This document shows, piece by piece, positions 1-56,776 of a stretch of DNA of 64,000 bases (the stretch's first letter is position 1; each line of letters opens with the position of its first letter). The translations under genes and the position numbers were made by a program. The stretch is taken from contig JADJTD010000002.1 of NCBI GenBank assembly GCA_016711345.1, positions 277 to 64,276 of the forward strand, read 5' to 3'. The notes below the pieces were generated by a model. That model was not told the DNA's origin and did no database searches. It saw nothing but the letters and a program-made list of their open reading frames with translations. Origin of the DNA: Chloracidobacterium sp. Its GTDB lineage: Bacteria > Acidobacteriota > Blastocatellia > Pyrinomonadales > Pyrinomonadaceae.

Positions 1-783
1 ACCGAGAAACTGATCACGATGCTGCCAGATGTTTTCGCGCTCACTGTCGGTGAACCCAGTTCCGATATTGAACTCGACTCCTTCCGCAGTTCTGCAAACA
101 AGCGCTCCAAGGTCGCCTCGACCTGATTTACCCGCTCGATGACTGCTGCGTTTGGTTCGTCCAAGTTCAGACACAGTTGCTTCATTTCCATTGTGCATCC
201 TCTCTTCAAAACCAATGACCGTGGCCTCGGCATCCATGAACCTCTTTAGCTTCAGCAGGTAGCCTTCGCGTACCGTGCTGCGGCCCATCTTGTATGGGGC
301 ATCCGGGCTGCGCAGGATCAGACCTTCGAAGCCTTCATCGAGTATGTCCTCCTCGTACTTGAGTAATGCGTCGATAGTCTTGACGAGCTTCTGGTCGTGT
401 AGCACAACACTCAGTTCACGAGAATTCTTCAGCGCAGATTTCAGTTTGTCAGCACGACGCGAGTACTCAGATACCAGTTCTTCGACGTGATCGAACACGT
501 AGAAGCGCAGGTCGTACTTCTCCTTGTCGTGAGACATGACGTGACTGACAGTATCTCGATAGACAGTCTTGCCGCTGGGGTCACCAACGATCAGCTCGCC
601 ATCAAAGTGTGTGAGGTGCTTGAACTCCTGCTGCACGAAGGCATTCGGGATCGGCTTGTTGCTACGGCTGTACACCACACCGTCACGCACCACGGCTCTG
701 ACGCCATCCAATTTGGGTGAACACAAAATCGGATACCTTAATTTTTCTAAATCACAATCACATGCCAACATCGGCTTAAACAT
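1..783 (-). CDS. ATP-dependent DNA ligase (C-terminus runs off the window edge)
   Basis: Absent from the ORF track because it is open-ended. My minus-strand translation from ATG 783 reads MFKPMLACDCDLEKLRYPILCSPKLDGVRAVV...EGLILRSPDAPYKMGRS...GYLLKLKRF...GALVCRTAEGVEFNIGTGFTD. This shows the KxDG adenylation site, motifs IV/V and an OB-fold. The ATG overlaps the stop of ORF 776..1426. Confidence 0.85.
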   Translation of the reverse strand, partial: MFKPMLACDCDLEKLRYPILCSPKLDGVRAVVRDGVVYSRSNKPIPNAFVQQEFKHLTHFDGELIVGDPSGKTVYRDTVSHVMSHDKEKYDLRFYVFDHVEELVSEYSRRADKLKSALKNSRELSVVLHDQKLVKTIDALLKYEEDILDEGFEGLILRSPDAPYKMGRSTVREGYLLKLKRFMDAEATVIGFEERMHNGNEATVSELGRTKRSSHRAGKSGRGDLGALVCRTAEGVEFNIGTGFTDSERENIWQHRDQFLG

Positions 784-1426
784 TTTTAATCCTTTTGGTT
801 GTTGATAAAGCTCTGTCAATCGACCAACTGTTCCTATATATGCGTTCGTATATGAGGCGATACGGAAGGTTTTTTGATTCGCAAATGTTTACCAAAGGTA
901 CGAGTTGTCCTTTGTGCTTTATCCGTGGTGTACATGTGCGATTTCTCATTTGCTCTTTAACCGTCGCCCACTTGCAGTTGCCGGGTGCGTAATTGCCGTT
1001 TACATTAATGCGCTCAAGTGTGTGATTTGGTGGGCACTCACCCATATCAGTTAAGAAGCGTTCGAATGAGCTTTTCCAATGAGCGCATACCGTAATACCG
1101 CGAGCGCCGTAATTTTTGTATTGCGGCGCGTTCGGGTTAAAGCATCGGTCCTTCGCTCCACGCCACGCAAACCACTCACGTGTTTTTGTTTTACCGTGTC
1201 GTAGATTCGTTTTACCGACATTTGAACAAGTGTCTGCAACAAGACATCCACACGATCTTGAATGCCCTTCATGCAAATTCCCTGCTTCTACAAGGATGGT
1301 GTTACCGCAACCGCATATACACACCCAGTTAACGCGTCTGCGTCCATTGGCTTGAACATGGCCCGGACCCTCTTTGACTACTGTTAATCTCCCAACAACG
1401 TCACCTGTGCGATCTCGTTTCTTCAT
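776..1426 (-). CDS. free-standing homing-endonuclease-like / DNA-binding protein (Cys-cluster N-terminus)
   Basis: 216-aa track ORF. It has an N-terminal WVCICGCGN...SRSCGC cluster and a YGARGITVC..W...DMG...LERINVNGNYAPGNCKWAT module typical of mobile phage endonuclease-like genes. Codon usage is visibly AT-richer. It sits between a ligase 5' relic and the functional ligase start. Confidence 0.75.
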   Translation of the reverse strand: MKKRDRTGDVVGRLTVVKEGPGHVQANGRRRVNWVCICGCGNTILVEAGNLHEGHSRSCGCLVADTCSNVGKTNLRHGKTKTREWFAWRGAKDRCFNPNAPQYKNYGARGITVCAHWKSSFERFLTDMGECPPNHTLERINVNGNYAPGNCKWATVKEQMRNRTCTPRIKHKGQLVPLVNICESKNLPYRLIYERIYRNSWSIDRALSTTKRIKNV

Positions 1427-1445
1427 AACCCACTCAACTCAGTTA

Positions 1446-1547
1446 TTAAGTCTGATGGAGTATATCAGAGAGAAGTAGATTATGAAAGAGCGGAAAACGA
1501 AGCTTGTCCAGCTCAGCGTCGGTTGCAAGCATTGGCTTGAAAATCAT
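1446..1547 (-). pseudogene. relic 5' end of the DNA ligase gene (33 codons)
   Basis: ATG 1547 is preceded by AAGGAG. It encodes MIFKPMLATDAELDKLRFPLF and then diverges (HNLLLSDILHQT*). The first 20 residues align with the functional ligase N-terminus MFKPMLACDCDLEKLRYPIL at 783. Confidence 0.6.
1451..1490 (-). promoter_or_regulatory. CTCTGATA-family promoter/operator candidate upstream of the endonuclease-like gene
   Basis: The minus strand reads CTTCTCTCTGATATACTCCATCAGA. This gives TGnTATACT (extended -10-like) about 33 nt before ATG 1426. It also forms the inverted repeat TCTGAT-N7-ATCAGA (1451..1469). Confidence 0.4.
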
Positions 1548-1948
1548 TTCGTTTCTCCTTTGTAATACTGAAAGCTCCAGTCGCCGTAGAACATCCCGTC
1601 GTAATAGATCATGTCTTCCCAAACGAAGATAGGCGCACGAAACGACACTGGTTTCGTGCTGCCGTTGTGGAAGGTACAGACTGGGCAACCGATGCTGATA
1701 GCGTCACCCTCATCGTCACCAAAGCGTAGGTCGCTCATATAGGTGCATGCCATCCATTCGAACGGGCCGAGATAAGGGCCATCGTCACCCCAGTCACTCA
1801 TTTCCTCTTCGGCGTATTCGCGCCCGTGATAGAGGTAAAGGTACATGCCTGGTTTAGTCGGCTTGTCACACTTCAGCCCCTGTACCATGGTCGCTTCGCG
1901 ATCCATGACTGGGAGGGTGAGAATTTCTTCGATGGTGAGCTTAGTCAT
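1544..1948 (-). CDS. hypothetical protein
   Basis: Track ORF 1544..1981. I moved the start to ATG 1948 (MTKLTIEE), which overlaps the deaminase stop (ATGACTAA). Its TGA overlaps the ATG of the ligase relic. Confidence 0.7.
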   Translation of the reverse strand: MTKLTIEEILTLPVMDREATMVQGLKCDKPTKPGMYLYLYHGREYAEEEMSDWGDDGPYLGPFEWMACTYMSDLRFGDDEGDAISIGCPVCTFHNGSTKPVSFRAPIFVWEDMIYYDGMFYGDWSFQYYKGETK

Positions 1949-2393
1949 GTGGCACCTCATCAAAATAAACACCGCATTCATTGAACAGTCGGATTACACG
2001 ATATTTGTGCTCGATCCACCGCTTGGCGAATTCTTCTTCTGGCTTGGGCCAGAACACTTCCCTTATCCCAGCTTGAACAATTGCACGAGCGCAGTCCATG
2101 CACGGTGGGTGAGTGACGACAATGGTGCTTCCGATGAGCGACACACCCATACGCGCTGCGTTGTATATGGCGTTGCGTTCCGCGTGTTCCATCCAGAAAT
2201 ATTTCTCCGGCCTCTCGGTACCACGAACATCCTCATCGGCAGCACACCCTCTGGGAGCACCGTTGTATCCCATGGTTCGGACTTCGAGCGAGGGACTGAC
2301 GACGATTGCGCCAACCTGCGTGCTTTTGTCCTTGCTGAGCTTTGAAATAGCATTTGCGATCTCCAGGTACTTGCTGAATTTGTCTCGGTTCAT
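1941..2393 (-). CDS. dCMP deaminase (cytidine/deoxycytidylate deaminase fold)
   Basis: 150 aa with the zinc-binding motifs HAERNA and PCMDCA at the characteristic spacing. Confidence 0.85.
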   Translation of the reverse strand: MNRDKFSKYLEIANAISKLSKDKSTQVGAIVVSPSLEVRTMGYNGAPRGCAADEDVRGTERPEKYFWMEHAERNAIYNAARMGVSLIGSTIVVTHPPCMDCARAIVQAGIREVFWPKPEEEFAKRWIEHKYRVIRLFNECGVYFDEVPHD

Positions 2394-2608
2394 TGCACTG
2401 CCCTTTCTTCCGTCAGTCGACGACCCGACATGGCCAGCATGCTCAGGTATGGGTCGAGCTTCTCGCCCAGCTCAGCCTGCATCGCTAGATAGCCGACGAT
2501 GATGAAATACTCAGCCTTCGCTGCTGCTTGCGTTTTGGGCTTCAGGTTGTTGTTCTTAAACTGCACCAGGATCAGCTCGCGCAGTCGTTCGATATCGGGT
2601 CGCATCAT
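2390..2608 (-). CDS. hypothetical protein
   Basis: 72-aa track ORF. It shows ATGA stop/start coupling with the deaminase gene and an AGGAG RBS upstream. Confidence 0.65.
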   Translation of the reverse strand: MMRPDIERLRELILVQFKNNNLKPKTQAAAKAEYFIIVGYLAMQAELGEKLDPYLSMLAMSGRRLTEERAVQ

Positions 2609-2633
2609 GTGTTGCTCCTAAAAGAGTTTGGTG

Positions 2634-2663
2634 CCCGACAGGGGGCTGGGCAGCGGTGTCGGG
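2634..2663 (-). terminator. weak hairpin (7-bp stem CCCGACA/TGTCGGG, 16-nt loop)
   Basis: On the minus strand the hairpin is followed by CACCAAACTCTTTT. It lies between ORF 2782..2961 and the RBS of ORF 2390..2608. Confidence 0.3.
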
Positions 2664-2781
2664 GCTAACGTATCTCGGACGTTTCGAACGGAACAGTCAC
2701 GCAGCTGGAGGTGGAACAAGTAAGAGACCACGCCTGTTCAGCCAATGTTTTATCCCACCTTTGGCTGGGGCATCACGGACA

Positions 2782-2961
2782 CTACCTTGTGTACCAGCCG
2801 TAGCCTGGGTTGTGCCAGAGCTGCGTGGTGTTGACCTTCTCGCGTGCGTCTAGCCAGTTCTTGGCAGGAATGGTTTGCAACACGTTGTCCTTTGCAGAAG
2901 TCTCGGTATCGAGGATGACTCGATCTTCACCTTCGCGTTGCTTCAGGTAGAAGGTTTTCAT
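2782..2961 (-). CDS. hypothetical small protein (59 aa)
   Basis: Below the track length cutoff. My translation is MKTFYLKQREGEDRVILDTETSAKDNVLQTIPAKNWLDAREKVNTTQLWHNPGYGWYTR. The ATG lies 2 nt after the stop of the upstream ORF. Confidence 0.45.
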   Translation of the reverse strand: MKTFYLKQREGEDRVILDTETSAKDNVLQTIPAKNWLDAREKVNTTQLWHNPGYGWYTR

Positions 2962-2962
2962 T

Positions 2963-3664
2963 TCATTGTTCTTTCATTAGTTTCAAATCAATCACGCGTT
3001 TCTTCGTCCCATGTGCTGGAAATCCGATGACTGCGCGATCTGGACTGTTGTCTGCGCAAATACCGCAGCGTGCGCAGTCCATGTCGTCTCGATAAGTGGC
3101 TGGGCAGACGACGACCTTTCTTCCGCCAGCCGTGTAGAGCGAGTGCTCTGTTATTCCACTGGGTAGCACCACTGCTTGAGGTAGCGAGGTAATCTGTGCG
3201 ACTGCATCAGAGTTCGTCAGAGAGTCACACGAAACATTGATGGTGAATCCAGCTTCGTTCGCAGCTTCAATGATGTGAATGTTTTCCGGTGTGAGGGGGT
3301 AGTGTGTGTACGTGAAACCACGCTTCCCTTTGTTCGCCTGCACCAGTTCTTCAAGCGCAGGCTGGTCAATCAGTACGCCGTCACCTGGTAGATCACCTGC
3401 TTGGTTGTGTCGCCAGAGCTGCTTGCGCGGCAGGCGGCTGATCTCGTCACAGAAGTCTGGCCAGTCCATACCTCGTTCACCGTTATTGATCTTGTTCCAG
3501 TGCATGAGCAGTGGGCCGAACTTCGCGTAGCAGGTGTCGAACTGCTCACACGTGGGAGGGCAAGTACGCGCCTCTGTCGTGCTCACAGGGATAGGGCCAG
3601 TCTTCTTGTTATGACTGATGCGAGTTAGGCCGACACGGTACATGGCGCTCCTCTCGTTTTTCAA
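2963..3664 (-). CDS. Cys-rich conserved phage protein (possibly GP88-like family)
   Basis: 233-aa track ORF. It has an N-terminal TCPPTC..C and a C-terminal CP...CARCGIC cysteine pattern. The start may instead be the internal ATG at 3643 (MYRVGL). Confidence 0.65.
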   Translation of the reverse strand: MKNERSAMYRVGLTRISHNKKTGPIPVSTTEARTCPPTCEQFDTCYAKFGPLLMHWNKINNGERGMDWPDFCDEISRLPRKQLWRHNQAGDLPGDGVLIDQPALEELVQANKGKRGFTYTHYPLTPENIHIIEAANEAGFTINVSCDSLTNSDAVAQITSLPQAVVLPSGITEHSLYTAGGRKVVVCPATYRDDMDCARCGICADNSPDRAVIGFPAHGTKKRVIDLKLMKEQ

Positions 3665-3845
3665 AGTCGTACACGTAGTTCACTTCTTCGTCAGACTCAC
3701 GAGCTTCGAATCCGATAGGCATCGTCCACCGTTGAAAGCGGTCACTTGCAGCGGCATGCGCCTCAACCTCTGTGGCAAACGCCGTGGAGTTCGTGGCCCA
3801 CTCCCCACCGGGGAATTCAAAATAAGGTTTCCATGACTTGCTCAT
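3609..3845 (-). CDS. hypothetical protein
   Basis: 78-aa track ORF in the same orientation as its neighbours. It is coupled (ATGA) to the stop of ORF 3842..4351. Confidence 0.6.
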   Translation of the reverse strand: MSKSWKPYFEFPGGEWATNSTAFATEVEAHAAASDRFQRWTMPIGFEARESDEEVNYVYDFEKREERHVPCRPNSHQS

Positions 3846-16101: not shown

Positions 16102-16374
16102 TCATGTCAGTTCTCCCATCATCGCGTCGTCACGCTCACGTTCCCATGCAGCCTCGGCTGCGCATACCAGTTCTTCGTGCTTGTGCTTCTCCGCTTCGTC
16201 ATACATGCGGTCCTGCAGGTACTCGTAGTCTTCCGGGTGCAGGATGTCGCTGACACGAACGCCTTCGAACATAATCTTGGTGATCTCTGCGGACGAAGCG
16301 TACGGCCACTTGTACTGGAAGAAGACTTCGACTTCACCGTCGTTCAGTGCGTGTTTGAATGAGCCTGTAGTCAT
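16102..16374 (-). CDS. hypothetical protein (N-terminus MTTGSFKHALNDGEVEVFF)
   Basis: Start at ATG 16374 after AAGGAAAGGA. The N-terminal motif is duplicated as a relic at 17257..17346. Confidence 0.6.
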   Translation of the reverse strand: MTTGSFKHALNDGEVEVFFQYKWPYASSAEITKIMFEGVRVSDILHPEDYEYLQDRMYDEAEKHKHEELVCAAEAAWERERDDAMMGELT

Positions 16375-16679
16375 TTCAAATCCTTTCCTTTTTCGATCCA
16401 CACATTCGCTGGTCGGCAAAGGTGCAGTTCGTTGTTGAAGTAAGCAGCGCCATGCCGCAAGCAGGAAATGATGAGCTGCTCGGCCTTATCTCGCTGCGAG
16501 TACTCTTCGTAGATGGCTTGAGAAAGTGCAGTGGTGTTCCAGATCAGTAAACCGATTAACGCCATAACGATCAATTGGGCAGCAGCACGTACGCTTGCCC
16601 AGAAATGTTTGTTTATGGTGTAGTTGGTACGCATGCCCTGGCGTTGCTGCTTTGGGTGCAGGATGTAGTTACGCGGCAT
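16371..16679 (-). CDS. membrane protein
   Basis: 102-aa track ORF with one clear hydrophobic helix (AAAQLIVMALIGLLIW). It is coupled at both ends. Confidence 0.6.
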   Translation of the reverse strand: MPRNYILHPKQQRQGMRTNYTINKHFWASVRAAAQLIVMALIGLLIWNTTALSQAIYEEYSQRDKAEQLIISCLRHGAAYFNNELHLCRPANVWIEKGKDLK

Positions 16680-17256
16680 ATGCGGCCAGTAGAGGTGATA
16701 GTTTTTTTAACCTTGTTCCAGAGCGTAATTTGCGTAGAACCTTTGCTTCAATCTGAATAATGCGATCTCTACATACACCAAGTATTTTTCCTATTTCAAC
16801 GTGTGACATATCTTCCGTAAATCGGTAGTGCAGCACTTGACGTTCGCGAGGTGTTAGCGCTTCTGTGCAAACATCAAGTAATTGTTGTGCAACTTGTTTA
16901 TTTTCGAATTCACTAATATCTAATTCATAGGATTGTTGTTCTGATGGTAGTAGTGCCGCTAATTGTTCGTGACTCATTTCCATTTCAGCAAAGTTCTTTT
17001 CCAATGGGTGCAGTTGTTCTGCACTCCAAAGGTCTTCTGGCACCTTATTGAGTAGGTCGCATAGTTGAGTTGCAATAGGGCTTAATGCCCCATACGACGT
17101 TATTGGACTACGCGTCATATTGATTAATTCGTTTACTTTCGTGTAGCTCAGATAATTTGCATCACACCATTTTTGACCAGGCGTGCCACCGGACTCTTCA
17201 ATTGCTTTTAAGAGTCGATTATTTCTGACCTTAACTGTTACGCGATAGTCCTTCAT
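16669..17256 (-). CDS. sigma-70 region-4 domain protein (atypical phage sigma or sigma-mimic)
   Basis: The C-terminus LTPRERQVLHYRFTEDMSHVEIGKILGVCRDRIIQIEAKVLRKLR is a near-textbook sigma-70 region 4.2. I recognise no region 2. The ATG at 17256 overlaps the stop of ORF 17253..17471 (ATGA). The gene is visibly AT-rich. Confidence 0.75.
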   Translation of the reverse strand: MKDYRVTVKVRNNRLLKAIEESGGTPGQKWCDANYLSYTKVNELINMTRSPITSYGALSPIATQLCDLLNKVPEDLWSAEQLHPLEKNFAEMEMSHEQLAALLPSEQQSYELDISEFENKQVAQQLLDVCTEALTPRERQVLHYRFTEDMSHVEIGKILGVCRDRIIQIEAKVLRKLRSGTRLKKLSPLLAAYAA

Positions 17257-17471
17257 AGCTGAGAACTCTCCTTCGACTTCCCCATCATTAACTGCATGAG
17301 TAAAGCTTCCGCTGATATGAGTTTTTCTTTCCAACTCGTCAAGCACAGTTCGCAGAACCAGCGGTGTGTTTTACCCCTATTAGCCTTGACGTAATCGCCG
17401 TTCTTCAAAGGGCGATAGCTGCGACAATTCGCACACCATCGATCTGAAATATTCAGGCGGCTGTAGATCAC
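17253..17471 (-). CDS. small Cys-pair (zinc-ribbon-like) protein
   Basis: 72-aa track ORF with CANC...CELC. It is coupled (ATGA) to the helicase stop and to the sigma-like gene start. Confidence 0.55.
   Translation of the reverse strand: MIYSRLNISDRWCANCRSYRPLKNGDYVKANRGKTHRWFCELCLTSWKEKLISAEALLMQLMMGKSKESSQL
17257..17346 (-). pseudogene. relic of the 5' end of a homologue of gene 16102..16374
   Basis: This frame reads ...ERKTHISGSFTHAVNDGEVEGEFSA. The functional gene reads DRKRKGFEMTTGSFKHALNDGEVEVFF. The initiator position is ATC in the relic, and the relic overlaps the 3' end of ORF 17253..17471. Confidence 0.4.
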
Positions 17472-55205: not shown

Positions 55206-56776
55206 AGACGCAAGCCCTTGCCCCGTTTCTAGGTATCAACAACAGGAAGCCTGACTTCTCGTTGCGCGTGGCCACGTCCACCATGAATGGTCAGTACCTC
55301 CGCAGCGCAGATAACGTGGATGTGAACAACGCTGGCAAGCTGCGCCGCATTGACGGCGCTACCCGCATCGCCGCCATGGCGAACCCGCACAGTCTCTTCG
55401 CTGACAGCTTTGTCGTGCGCTCTGCCGTGCTCTATTCGATCACCCTTCCGACATATGCAGAGACCATGCTGAAGGTGCTCACGAGCGACGCAGCGATGTC
55501 CTACGTCGAGGCGAACGGCAGCACCTACTACTCGAACGGCACAGACTCAGGGCGCGCGACAAGCGGTATTGTCTACCCCCTGGCCTTGCCCACCCCGGAT
55601 GAGCCAACGATCTCAATCACAACGGGTGGACTTCTTCCCGGTCGGTATCAAGTCGGTGTGAGCTACAGCAACGCCACCACGGGCGAAGAGGGTGGTATCA
55701 GTGCGTCAAGCAACATCGAGCTGACGACCACGAGCGGTATCCACGTAGTGCTACCTGCGGCGACCACTGGGGCCACTCACGTCAACATCTACCTCTCGGA
55801 TGCGAACGGCTCGGTGCCGAAACTGGTGACATCTGTTGTCACAGGTACGGCGAGCTACGACTGTGTTGCTCTCGGCACTGGTCGCGAGTCCAATGGTCGG
55901 TTCGAGGAGCCACTACCGGCAGGCACCTTGTTCATGTCCAACGGACGCTTGTGCAGCTTCTCTCAGAACACGGTCTTTGTCGGTCTTCCGTACCGCCATG
56001 GCTACTATCTGCCAGCTAGTGGATATATCCCATTCCCGGCAGATGTTACGGTGGCTGTAGAGAATCAGGGTGGAACATTCATCGTGGCTGACAAGAGTTA
56101 CTGGTTCCCTGGCGACCTGGGGGCACCGAAAGAACAGGTGGCCACCGTGCTGCCGTATGGCGGCGTCGCCGGTACTGCATTCAAGATGCCTGATAGCAGC
56201 ATGTGTGGGTGGTTCGGTGATAAGGGTTTCGTCTTCGGTGCGACCTCTGGTGAGGTGGAAGCGGTGATGACTGAGAACGTTGACCTCACTCCGCCGCAGT
56301 CCGGTTTCTCCACGATCTACGAGACGACGGGCTACTCCCGCGTGATGAGTTGCGGGTGGACGGTGAACCTTGAGAACAAGGCTGCGACAACCTATAGCGT
56401 GCCATTCACCTCTGCATCTGGTAACTACGTCACGCGCTCTGATGGAATCTATCAGATTGACAGCGAGGCTGCTGTCGATGCGTCAATCGGATTCGGCAAG
56501 ATGAACTTCGAGACTGAGGCGAAGAAGTCTATCCCTGCTGTGTACCTAGGCATCGATGCGAGCGACCAAATGATGCTCACAGTGACTACGCCGAATGGCA
56601 CGAGCTATGAGTACCTTGCGCGTAGCAGCAGCGAGGATTTGAAAATTCAGCGCATTGATCCGGGCAAGGGCTTACTCGAAAACTGGTTCGATCTTGCGCT
56701 GACAAACACAAACGGTTCAGCTTTCACCATGGCTTCCATCTCATTCGGGGCCATCGCCTCTTCGCGGAGAATCTAA
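55202..56776 (+). CDS. virion structural protein
   Basis: Track ORF 55142..56776. The ATG at 55202 overlaps the upstream stop (ATGA). Confidence 0.75.
   Translation: MKTQALAPFLGINNRKPDFSLRVATSTMNGQYLRSADNVDVNNAGKLRRIDGATRIAAMANPHSLFADSFVVRSAVLYSITLPTYAETMLKVLTSDAAMSYVEANGSTYYSNGTDSGRATSGIVYPLALPTPDEPTISITTGGLLPGRYQVGVSYSNATTGEEGGISASSNIELTTTSGIHVVLPAATTGATHVNIYLSDANGSVPKLVTSVVTGTASYDCVALGTGRESNGRFEEPLPAGTLFMSNGRLCSFSQNTVFVGLPYRHGYYLPASGYIPFPADVTVAVENQGGTFIVADKSYWFPGDLGAPKEQVATVLPYGGVAGTAFKMPDSSMCGWFGDKGFVFGATSGEVEAVMTENVDLTPPQSGFSTIYETTGYSRVMSCGWTVNLENKAATTYSVPFTSASGNYVTRSDGIYQIDSEAAVDASIGFGKMNFETEAKKSIPAVYLGIDASDQMMLTVTTPNGTSYEYLARSSSEDLKIQRIDPGKGLLENWFDLALTNTNGSAFTMASISFGAIASSRRI

Follow-up and report, generated by a model that had tools for sequence, protein, structure and literature searches.

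A homing-endonuclease-type cassette that probably entered a phage DNA ligase gene and supplied it with a recoded start

Introduction

Homing endonuclease genes favour the highly conserved codons of catalytic sites, where an insertion normally needs an intron or an intein or else splits the gene. A locus in which the start of a DNA ligase gene is present twice, once on either side of a gene for an endonuclease-like protein of 216 amino acids (aa), raises the question of how such a gene could enter coding sequence and leave a complete ligase gene behind. The locus is located on the minus strand at one end of the window, i.e., the whole stretch of 64,000 nucleotides (nt) analysed here, which comprises positions 277–64276 of a phage-like contig of 68.5 kb (contig C2, guanine-plus-cytosine (GC) content of 54.8%) in a Chloracidobacterium sp. 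assembly (GenBank acc. no. GCA_016711345.1). A sequence-only reading of this DNA had proposed that a mobile cassette arrived with a replacement 5' end for the gene that it disrupted. Based on comparison with related phage loci, we consider it probable that a free-standing cassette of the homing endonuclease type inserted in the coding sequence of the phage ligase gene and supplied recoded codons 1–21. The ligase locus would thus represent a splicing-free solution in a phage, in which the element itself supplies a recoded gene start.

Results

Definition of the Inserted Segment

A search with the ligase gave protein P0121 on a sister contig (L286), which is 97% identical and possesses the native N-terminus. 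The alignment of related ligase loci with and without the insert, as suggested in the sequence-only reading, defined the junctions by means of this contig. Window positions 3836..1537 corresponded to L286 946–3249 with 95.0% DNA identity, the relic of the native ligase start (1532..1486) matched L286 4025–4071 at 45 of 47 nt, and the ligase body (720..-275) matched L286 4076–5071 with 98.3% DNA identity; the sequences flanking the cassette are only 4 nt apart in L286. This contig continuously reads CGT TTT CCG CTC TTA GCC TCT CCG AAA TTG GAT GGC, and the native L286-type ligase site carries GACAAGCTTCGTTTTCCGCTCTTAGCCTCTCCGAAATTGGATGGC. In the window, homology to L286 ends after CTC TT (1486) and resumes by AAA TTG GAT GGC (714), with 765–771 nt (1485 to 721–715) inserted between CCG CTC TT and AAA TTG GAT GGC and at most 10 nt replaced. 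The insertion is located about 10 nt upstream of the codons for motif I (KLDG), inside the ligase coding sequence. The open reading frames (ORFs) and segments concerned are as follows:

1544..1948, minus strand: ORF of 134 aa, the native neighbour upstream of the ligase, with 95% DNA identity to its equivalent in L286
start 1547, stop 1448–1446, minus strand: relic ORF of 33 codons, opening with MIFKPMLATDAELDKLRFPLF and preceded by a ribosome-binding site (AAGGAG-N7-ATG)
1486..1547, minus strand: relic of the native ligase start, comprising 20 codons (MIFKPMLATDAELDKLRFPL) and a further 2 nt (TT), assigned by its match to L286
1446..1485, minus strand: read-through tail of the relic ORF, HNLLLSDILHQT and then a stop, coded by the cassette leader
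715..1485 (right end ambiguous, 721–715), minus strand: whole inserted cassette of 765–771 nt, absent from L286
776..1426, minus strand: ORF of the 216-aa putative homing endonuclease (PHROG 374/3377/2081, 'HNH endonuclease')
715..783, minus strand: cassette-borne ligase 5' end, codons 1–21/23, MFKPMLACDCDLEKLRYPILC(SP), with 33% GC and TTR/AGR codons
1..714, minus strand: native ligase body from the lysine of motif I (KLDG), 98.3% DNA identity to L286

All four elements named in the sequence-only reading, i.e., the relic, a promoter-like motif, the 216-aa ORF, and the ligase start, were found at their minus-strand positions, and its proposal of a mobile cassette is supported by the discrete insertion relative to L286 and by the presence of native codons 1–21 upstream of it. 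The relic retains the native AAGGAG ribosome-binding site as well as the coupling to the upstream gene, the TGA of the 134-aa ORF overlapping the relic ATG (ATGA), and a leader of 60 nt is located between the 33-codon relic ORF and the 216-aa ORF. The working ligase starts at 783 with the N-terminus MFKPMLACDCDLEKLRYPILCSPKLDG, and its start (ATGTTTAA) shares nucleotides with the stop codon of the 216-aa ORF, whose 3' end also contains AAAGGA, the ribosome-binding site of this replacement start. The ligase ORF comprises 291 aa, runs 90 nt beyond the window start to C2:187, and encodes an ATP-dependent ligase with the Pfam domains DNA_ligase_A_M and DNA_ligase_OB_2.

A repeat scan at 1485 and 715–721 revealed neither a target-site duplication nor terminal inverted repeats, and the cassette, which consists of a single ORF, displayed no transposase or integrase domain and no att repeat. 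Its presence is sporadic, as L286 lacks the cassette and 42 related ligase loci from IMG/VR harbor no endonuclease-like gene at that position. Introns and inteins are frequently located inside coding sequence at conserved catalytic-motif regions, as the endonuclease-like gene is, so a spliced group I or group II intron or an intein could be considered, with the 21 upstream codons as exon 1. We regard this as hardly credible, since a search of positions 1..2500 against Rfam gave no match at E ≤ 1, the frame of the relic is terminated after 33 codons with the endonuclease-like ORF in a separate frame, and splicing is unnecessary given a second N-terminus that is complete and has a ribosome-binding site of its own.

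Comparison of the Two Ligase Starts

The homology of the two ligase N-termini, which had been claimed from the letters, was confirmed: 13 of 20 residues are identical between the relic and the working start, as are 37 of 60 nt, and tblastn against the whole 4.6-Mb assembly connected them with an E-value of 2e-4. Intact ligases of related IMG/VR phages read ...MLATDA(E/D)L.KLRFPLLAS(P/A)KLDG, which corresponds to the relic version and not to the working copy. Among the 120 closest ligase clusters, 117 revealed the relic-type N-terminus and just three the ILCSP signature. The sequence that matches the 33-codon ORF in relatives is thus the N-terminus of their ligase rather than a conserved independent gene.

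Analysis of GC content and codon usage revealed a real compositional break, in agreement with the sequence-only reading. For the 216-aa ORF, the GC content is 45.9% and that of third codon positions (GC3) 42%, compared to 52–53% and 58–66%, respectively, in the flanks. Codons 1–21 of the working ligase show a GC content of 33%, corresponding to the 0.5th percentile of the 63-nt windows of the contig; all five of their Leu codons are TTR, compared to 16% contig-wide (p ~1e-4), and AGR is used for both Arg residues. In the relic, Leu is coded by CTN and Arg by CGT. The AT-rich functional 5' end described before is foreign in codons 1–21/23, but AAA TTG GAT (KLD) and the AGA codons, which had been counted with it, are native and occur in L286 as well, so that the foreign tract ends at codon 21–23 and not at codon 27. 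The replacement segment could not be aligned to L286 before codon 22–24.

A further short match to the ligase start was seen at window positions 1345–1359, where ATGTTCAAGCCAATG, which would read MFKPM, is located out of frame within the 216-aa ORF. A single nt distinguishes it from ATTTTCAAGCCAATG of the relic, and about 0.02 chance matches are expected; it may be a coincidence or else an old recombination scar or microhomology.

The 216-aa Endonuclease-Like Protein

The designation of the 216-aa ORF as endonuclease-like is backed by matches to PHROG 374 (E 8e-56) and PHROG 3377 (E 2e-43), both annotated as 'HNH endonuclease'. Its AlphaFold model (predicted local distance difference test score, pLDDT, of 94) gave BFVD structure matches to many phage proteins named HNH endonuclease, AP2 domain protein, or PVL ORF-50-like. 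The protein is composed of an N-terminal Cys4 beta domain, whose cluster C38, C40, C59, and C61 is conserved in the family, a central variant HNH-like beta-beta-alpha element (136–161), and a C-terminal helical part, for which weak helix-turn-helix matches were obtained in a few relatives. In the model, the central element displays two strands plus a helix (136–139, 151–154, and 156–161, respectively). Pfam HNH_3 matched just one of 63 relatives (E 0.024), and in hhalign, LERINVNGNYAPGNCKWAT was weakly paired (E 0.054) with the stretch VDHINGNPSDFSLKNLRWVT from a genuine HNH_3 protein. The Asn residues N150 and N162 are conserved.

Using tblastn, relatives were detected in 1137 phage records, all with less than 60% identity and with at most 42% among the matches listed. 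Relatives with 35–36% identity are also found on two other phage-sized contigs of the same assembly (C12:38234–38695 and C13:11712–12170).

Association with Ligase Genes

The seven closest homologues of the 216-aa protein (48–78% identity) are each encoded directly upstream of a ligase gene, with differing neighbour genes. Among 159 fetched family loci, for which the lower-identity members were taken from IMG/VR and metagenome contigs, all those with at least 48% identity adjoin a ligase gene and none with 46% or less does. In a tree of 65 proteins, in which the genomic context of the other database proteins was not individually checked, the 10 ligase-adjacent proteins formed one clade (Shimodaira–Hasegawa-like approximate likelihood ratio test, SH-aLRT, of 98), and all 10 genes are located within 45 nt upstream of the ligase start or overlap it. 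One gene copy (L057) adjoins a ligase that is just 29–37% identical to the others. In the ligase tree, a quick and poorly resolved one, gene-bearing and gene-free ligase bodies are intermixed, with about seven state changes.

All ligases adjoining the endonuclease-like gene carry a recoded 5' segment. As a mean of 10 gene-bearing loci, the GC content of the first 63 nt (before the ASPK codons) is about 12 points lower than that of the following 300 nt, while the same difference is zero in 38 gene-free ligase loci (Mann–Whitney p = 2e-5, the loci not being fully independent). Two types of replacement segment were identified, one of native length (PI[LF]CS) in the window and L048 and one that is two residues longer (LDFSRG-like) in L051, L052, L053, L055, L056, and L125; neither was seen among the 38 gene-free loci.

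Comparison of the locus with 50,697 phage records via megablast and blastn gave no close relatives, just matches of 67–75% in the ligase body, and scanning of GTDB genome contigs with an alignment of the endonuclease-like gene gave distant relatives only. The exact 17-mer TCTGATATACTCCATCA resulted in 17 matches in IMG/VR and 66 in GTDB, a chance-level number, with none of them near an endonuclease-like gene or ligase.

Recurrent Relics and the History of the Insertions

Relics of the ligase start were also found in L048, where the endonuclease-like protein is 79% and the ligase body 71% identical to those of the window and the relic reads MSTIFKPMLATDAELDKLRFPL followed by a stop, and in L055 (59% and 53% identical, respectively), where it reads MSDKPFRPMLADPHVDELLRFPL followed by a stop whose TGA overlaps the ATG of the endonuclease-like gene. 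The three relics of the window, L048, and L055 are each ATGA-coupled to a different upstream gene, and all of them end at CGY TTY CCG CTN T at positions within 3 nt. The left ends of the cassettes vary, with a filler of 17 nt, a filler of 7 nt, or the ATG of the ORF following directly. Between the window and L048, the relics are identical in 19 of 19 residues, with 11 synonymous and no non-synonymous differences over 19 codons, a pattern that would fit relics which had been ends of working genes until recently. Since L286 keeps the native CTC TTA GCC TCT CCG, the insertion in the window most simply took place after 2–5% DNA divergence, and L055 is found elsewhere in the ligase tree (SH-aLRT of 92, quick tree). 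With the L286 site unaltered, three separate insertions into working ligase genes would be the simplest history, and not one old event. A single ancestral insertion common to the window and L048 was judged less likely for the same reason, the L286 site being native and unaltered.

A mini-ORF of 3–8 codons overlaps the upstream stop just before the leader in three gene-bearing loci that have no full relic (L052:4938–4965, L053:83–94, and L051:4925–4945). The one in L053 consists of ATGAGTGAC followed by TAG, and the L053 ligase starts with VSD. The mini-ORFs of L051–L053 may be native ligase starts that were shortened by deletion.

An assembly artefact or chimeric contig would be conceivable in an assembly with many phage-sized contigs of differing GC content. 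With both junctions inside continuous reading frames and the same architecture in independent assemblies, namely L048–L050 from three samples and L055, we attach next to no weight to it.

Several points weigh against recent, site-specific insertion of a homing-endonuclease-type cassette. The full relic is missing from six of nine distinct loci. Synonymous divergence of the endonuclease gene between the window and L048 amounts to 41% of conserved codons, compared to 42–49% in the flanks, and this agreement alone would also fit long vertical co-descent. The ligase tree was built with a quick method and contains many open forks, which makes the count of gains uncertain beyond the arguments from L055 and L286. 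As to the protein itself, no Pfam, NCBIfam, or PDB sequence match was obtained for it, and Foldseek against PDB gave no significant match either; in the weak hhalign alignment, the position of the catalytic His of the HNH motif is occupied by R139, which is invariant in 63 relatives. Based on annotation and genomic behaviour, nuclease activity is plausible.

These properties of the protein, i.e., an HNH-like motif without the catalytic His and no match to a nuclease fold, would suit a scenario in which the ORF is a mere passenger, perhaps a DNA-binding protein. Ordinary illegitimate recombination or module shuffling would then have joined two phages, one with the upstream gene followed by the ligase and the other with a free-standing endonuclease-like gene followed by the ligase, without any site-specific break. 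Phage genomes are mosaic, and the upstream genes do vary among the loci. Random illegitimate events, however, would not hit one site repeatedly, whereas the three relics end within 3 nt of each other in phages with a ligase identity of 53–71% and different upstream genes; besides, the clade of the ORF is exclusively ligase-adjacent, and the recoded 5' segment is specific to ligases beside the gene. We therefore give shuffling little probability.

In the other scenario to be weighed, the insertion in the window/L048 lineage is old and was inherited vertically, and the relic has been selected as a functional small ORF, be it as a coupling leader delivering ribosomes to the endonuclease-like gene and the ligase, as a homology arm, or for a peptide of its own. 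This agrees with the relics of the window and L048, identical in protein despite their 11 synonymous differences, with the strong ribosome-binding site and ATGA coupling of the relic, with the overlap of the L055 relic stop and the endonuclease ATG, and with the similar synonymous divergence of gene and flanks. It would, however, require a precise reversion in L286, whose ligase body is 98% identical and whose native site displays no hybrid footprint, and six of the nine gene-bearing loci possess no full relic. Moreover, the relic corresponds to the working N-terminus of gene-free ligases, which explains the signal of purifying selection without any function of the relic. An old insertion thus seems improbable as well, and the cassette insertion described above is the reading that we follow below.

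Leader and Expression Signals

Three further features, all belonging to the leader region, concern the expression of the 216-aa ORF:

1459..1486, minus strand: promoter-like motif TTCATA-16-TG-n-TATACT, from a consensus scan
1446..1469, minus strand: conserved non-coding element TCTGATATACTCCATCAGACTTAA of 24 nt, identical in L052
1410..1492, minus strand: leader hairpin, from folding compared to shuffled sequences

According to the consensus scan, TTCATA-16-TGnTATACT at 1486..1459 would represent a putative promoter, whose -35-like hexamer begins at the insertion junction and whose -10 hexamer is extended by TG. The element TCTGATATACTCCATCAGACTTAA overlaps the -10 hexamer and contains an anti-Shine-Dalgarno-like ACTCC. 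It is identical at 24 of 24 nt in L052, though the proteins are just 57% identical, near-identical in L048, and partly retained in L053, with zero matches in the window expected by chance. At 56437–56456, a stretch that matches the leader element TCTGATATACTCCATCAGAC at 17 of 20 nt is located antisense inside a structural gene of 544 aa and was judged to be a chance match.

In the leader hairpin, the 5' part of the leader, located upstream of the putative transcription start, base-pairs with the start region of the 216-aa ORF, namely its AUG and ribosome-binding site. The folding free energy of the hairpin is -22.8 kcal/mol (z -3.4), and none of 200 shuffled sequences was equally stable. According to the folding, the hairpin would hide the start in read-through transcripts only and not in transcripts from the cassette's own promoter, similar to the regulation of mobE and I-TevI. 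The leader hairpins of L048, L052, L051, and L053 were not significant, with weaker anti-Shine-Dalgarno pairings in L048 and L052, so the idea of regulation by the hairpin comes from the window only.

Candidate Footprints of Gene Loss

Two loci without the endonuclease-like gene displayed segments resembling those of the cassette. In L288 (L288:3001–3100), relic-type DNA extends to CGC TTT CCG and is followed by the cassette sequence ATT TTG TGT TCA CCC; the relic-type DNA is 94% identical to the window relic over 51 nt, while the ligase body is just 72% identical. L290 (L290:1536–1635) carries an AT-rich 5' segment of the cassette type with a GC content of 40%, compared to 59% in the body, and its ligase is directly coupled to the upstream gene. 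Judged from these sequences, both look like footprints of gene loss via recombination between the relic and the new segment. With their presumed target altered, the L288 and L290 alleles may possibly be resistant.

A Different Insertion in the Ligase Gene of L286

In the sister contig L286, the ligase 5' end carries an insertion as well, but of another kind (L286:3239–4024, corresponding to window 1547..1533). It comprises an ORF of 77 aa whose initial 8 nt are those of the native ligase (ATGATTTT), a gene for a 180-aa NUMOD4/HNH_3 endonuclease, and its own substitute ligase start of eight codons (MSANTFRC). BLASTP revealed no similarity between the 216-aa protein and the HNH protein of L286. 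In the window and L286, the replacement-start strategy thus appears to be shared by two unrelated endonuclease genes, at sites of one ligase gene that are separated by 45 nt.

Setting of the Locus

Further upstream in the ligase locus, one more gene was assigned:

2393..1941, minus strand: dCMP deaminase gene

The main chromosome of the source assembly comprises 4.15 Mb with a GC content of 49.4%, and the phage-like contig C2 is separate from it. The assembly holds 13 contigs of 5–68 kb with GC contents from 47% to 73%, and the sample behind it probably contained several phages or other elements.

Discussion

Proposed Course of Events

The cassette would carry its own promoter-like leader, the endonuclease-like ORF, and recoded ligase codons 1–21, and would need neither an intron nor an intein. 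The complete ligase would be translated from the new start that overlaps the stop of the ORF, leaving native codons 1–21 behind as a coupled short ORF. In cassette-free alleles, the protein may recognise CGY TTY CCG CTC / YTR GCC WSY CCS AAR and introduce a break near CCGCT^CTT, within a predicted recognition site of about 30 bp around this point. The native CTC TTA GCC TCT CCG, which would be part of the putative recognition site, is interrupted in the window, with ATT TTG TGT TCA CCC in its place. At the downstream end, repair of the break would proceed through homologous recombination, with the ligase body of a cassette-bearing phage as partner. At the upstream end, illegitimate joining (one-sided homing) would lead to a constant relic end and a variable left end of the cassette; alternatively, the relic may act as a homology arm once relic-bearing donors exist. 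The split target and the recoded right half would protect carriers from self-cleavage, and later recombination between relic and new segment could delete the gene and give rise to gene-free hybrid alleles, which would probably be resistant.

Generality and Significance

It is possible, though we propose it only tentatively, that replacement-end cassettes are a general third route besides introns or inteins and gene splitting, with the relic serving as homology arm and coupling leader. Hints of such generality come from the NUMOD4/HNH_3 insertion in L286, from a second cassette in the window, and from the loss footprints of L288 and L290, which look as if they would complete a cycle of gain, fixation, and loss. 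The second cassette (16102–17471, minus strand) also has a low GC content and a 5' relic, as the start of the downstream gene, GSFKHALNDGEVEVFF, is found again upstream as GSFTHAVNDGEVEGEF. It contains a sigma-factor-like ORF (PHROG 351, E 2e-12) and an ORF of 102 aa, and hence shows the same architecture with no recognisable endonuclease.

Natural stages are available in the form of a native site (L286), loci with relics (window, L048, and L055), relic-poor loci with the gene, and hybrids (L288 and L290), and they make the recognition site, one-sided illegitimate repair in nature, and the origin of resistant alleles testable. They also raise the question of whether a common HNH-annotated family, present in 1137 phage records and carrying Arg in place of the catalytic His, really is a nuclease. 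For annotation, a simple rule can be given: a short ORF that repeats the N-terminus of the gene just past an endonuclease-like gene marks such a cassette.

Comparison with Known Systems

To our knowledge, the mirror-image solution, in which the 3' end is replaced, is known just from fungal mitochondria, and no phage example of a replacement-start cassette was found in the literature searched. Elements that rebuild the gene they enter include SXT in the 5' end of prfC as well as prophages and islands in the 3' ends of tRNA genes. Like the ligase cassette, they bring a replacement for the displaced gene end, but they depend on integrases and att sites, whereas the cassette displays no integrase, att repeat, or target-site duplication.

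Among phages, the free-standing homing endonucleases of T-even phages (SegA–G and MobA–E, intronless homing; review PMC2988022) resemble the cassette in that they are sporadic among close relatives, adjoin a conserved gene of DNA metabolism, and show co-conversion of flanks. Target-site polymorphism in the carrier would be a further parallel if the altered ligase sequence is the recognition site, as may be a hairpin that would sequester the ribosome-binding site of the endonuclease gene in read-through transcripts. The T4 genes differ in that they sit between genes, and in nrdA/mobE of Aeh1 the interrupted gene is split into two working polypeptides (PMC3045599). The T4 review (PMC2988022) describes no arrangement in which a substitute start goes along with a stranded native start, nor was one found elsewhere in the literature searched. 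One-sided homing in T4, in which double-strand breaks are repaired illegitimately at microhomologies (Parker, Belisle and Belfort 1999, as reported in PMC2988022), relies on homology on one side and a microhomology junction on the other and would likewise give a constant relic end and a variable left end; as reported there, it was an engineered laboratory intron system, whereas we are dealing with natural products in three phage lineages without an intron.

The closest described architecture is that of the mitochondrial mobile-ORF (mORF) hybrid genes, as found in atp6 of Allomyces macrogynus (Paquin, Laforest and Lang 1994) and in atp6, atp9, cox2, and nad3 of Glomus (Beaudet et al. 2013, PMC3630166). 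There, too, an endonuclease ORF is located inside a conserved gene together with a foreign duplicate of the displaced end, the native end persists as a relic, and it is the relic rather than the inserted copy that more closely resembles the sister species, just as the ligase relic matches L286 at 45 of 47 nt. The hybrid genes differ in being organellar, in the replacement of the 3' end (PMC3630166), in the in-frame fusion of the ORF, and in a mitochondrial type of endonuclease, whereas in the bacteriophage ligase the 5' end is exchanged and a separate overlapping ORF of an HNH-annotated phage family is involved. With the 5' end replaced, the cassette must also bring a ribosome-binding site, a start codon, and probably a promoter.

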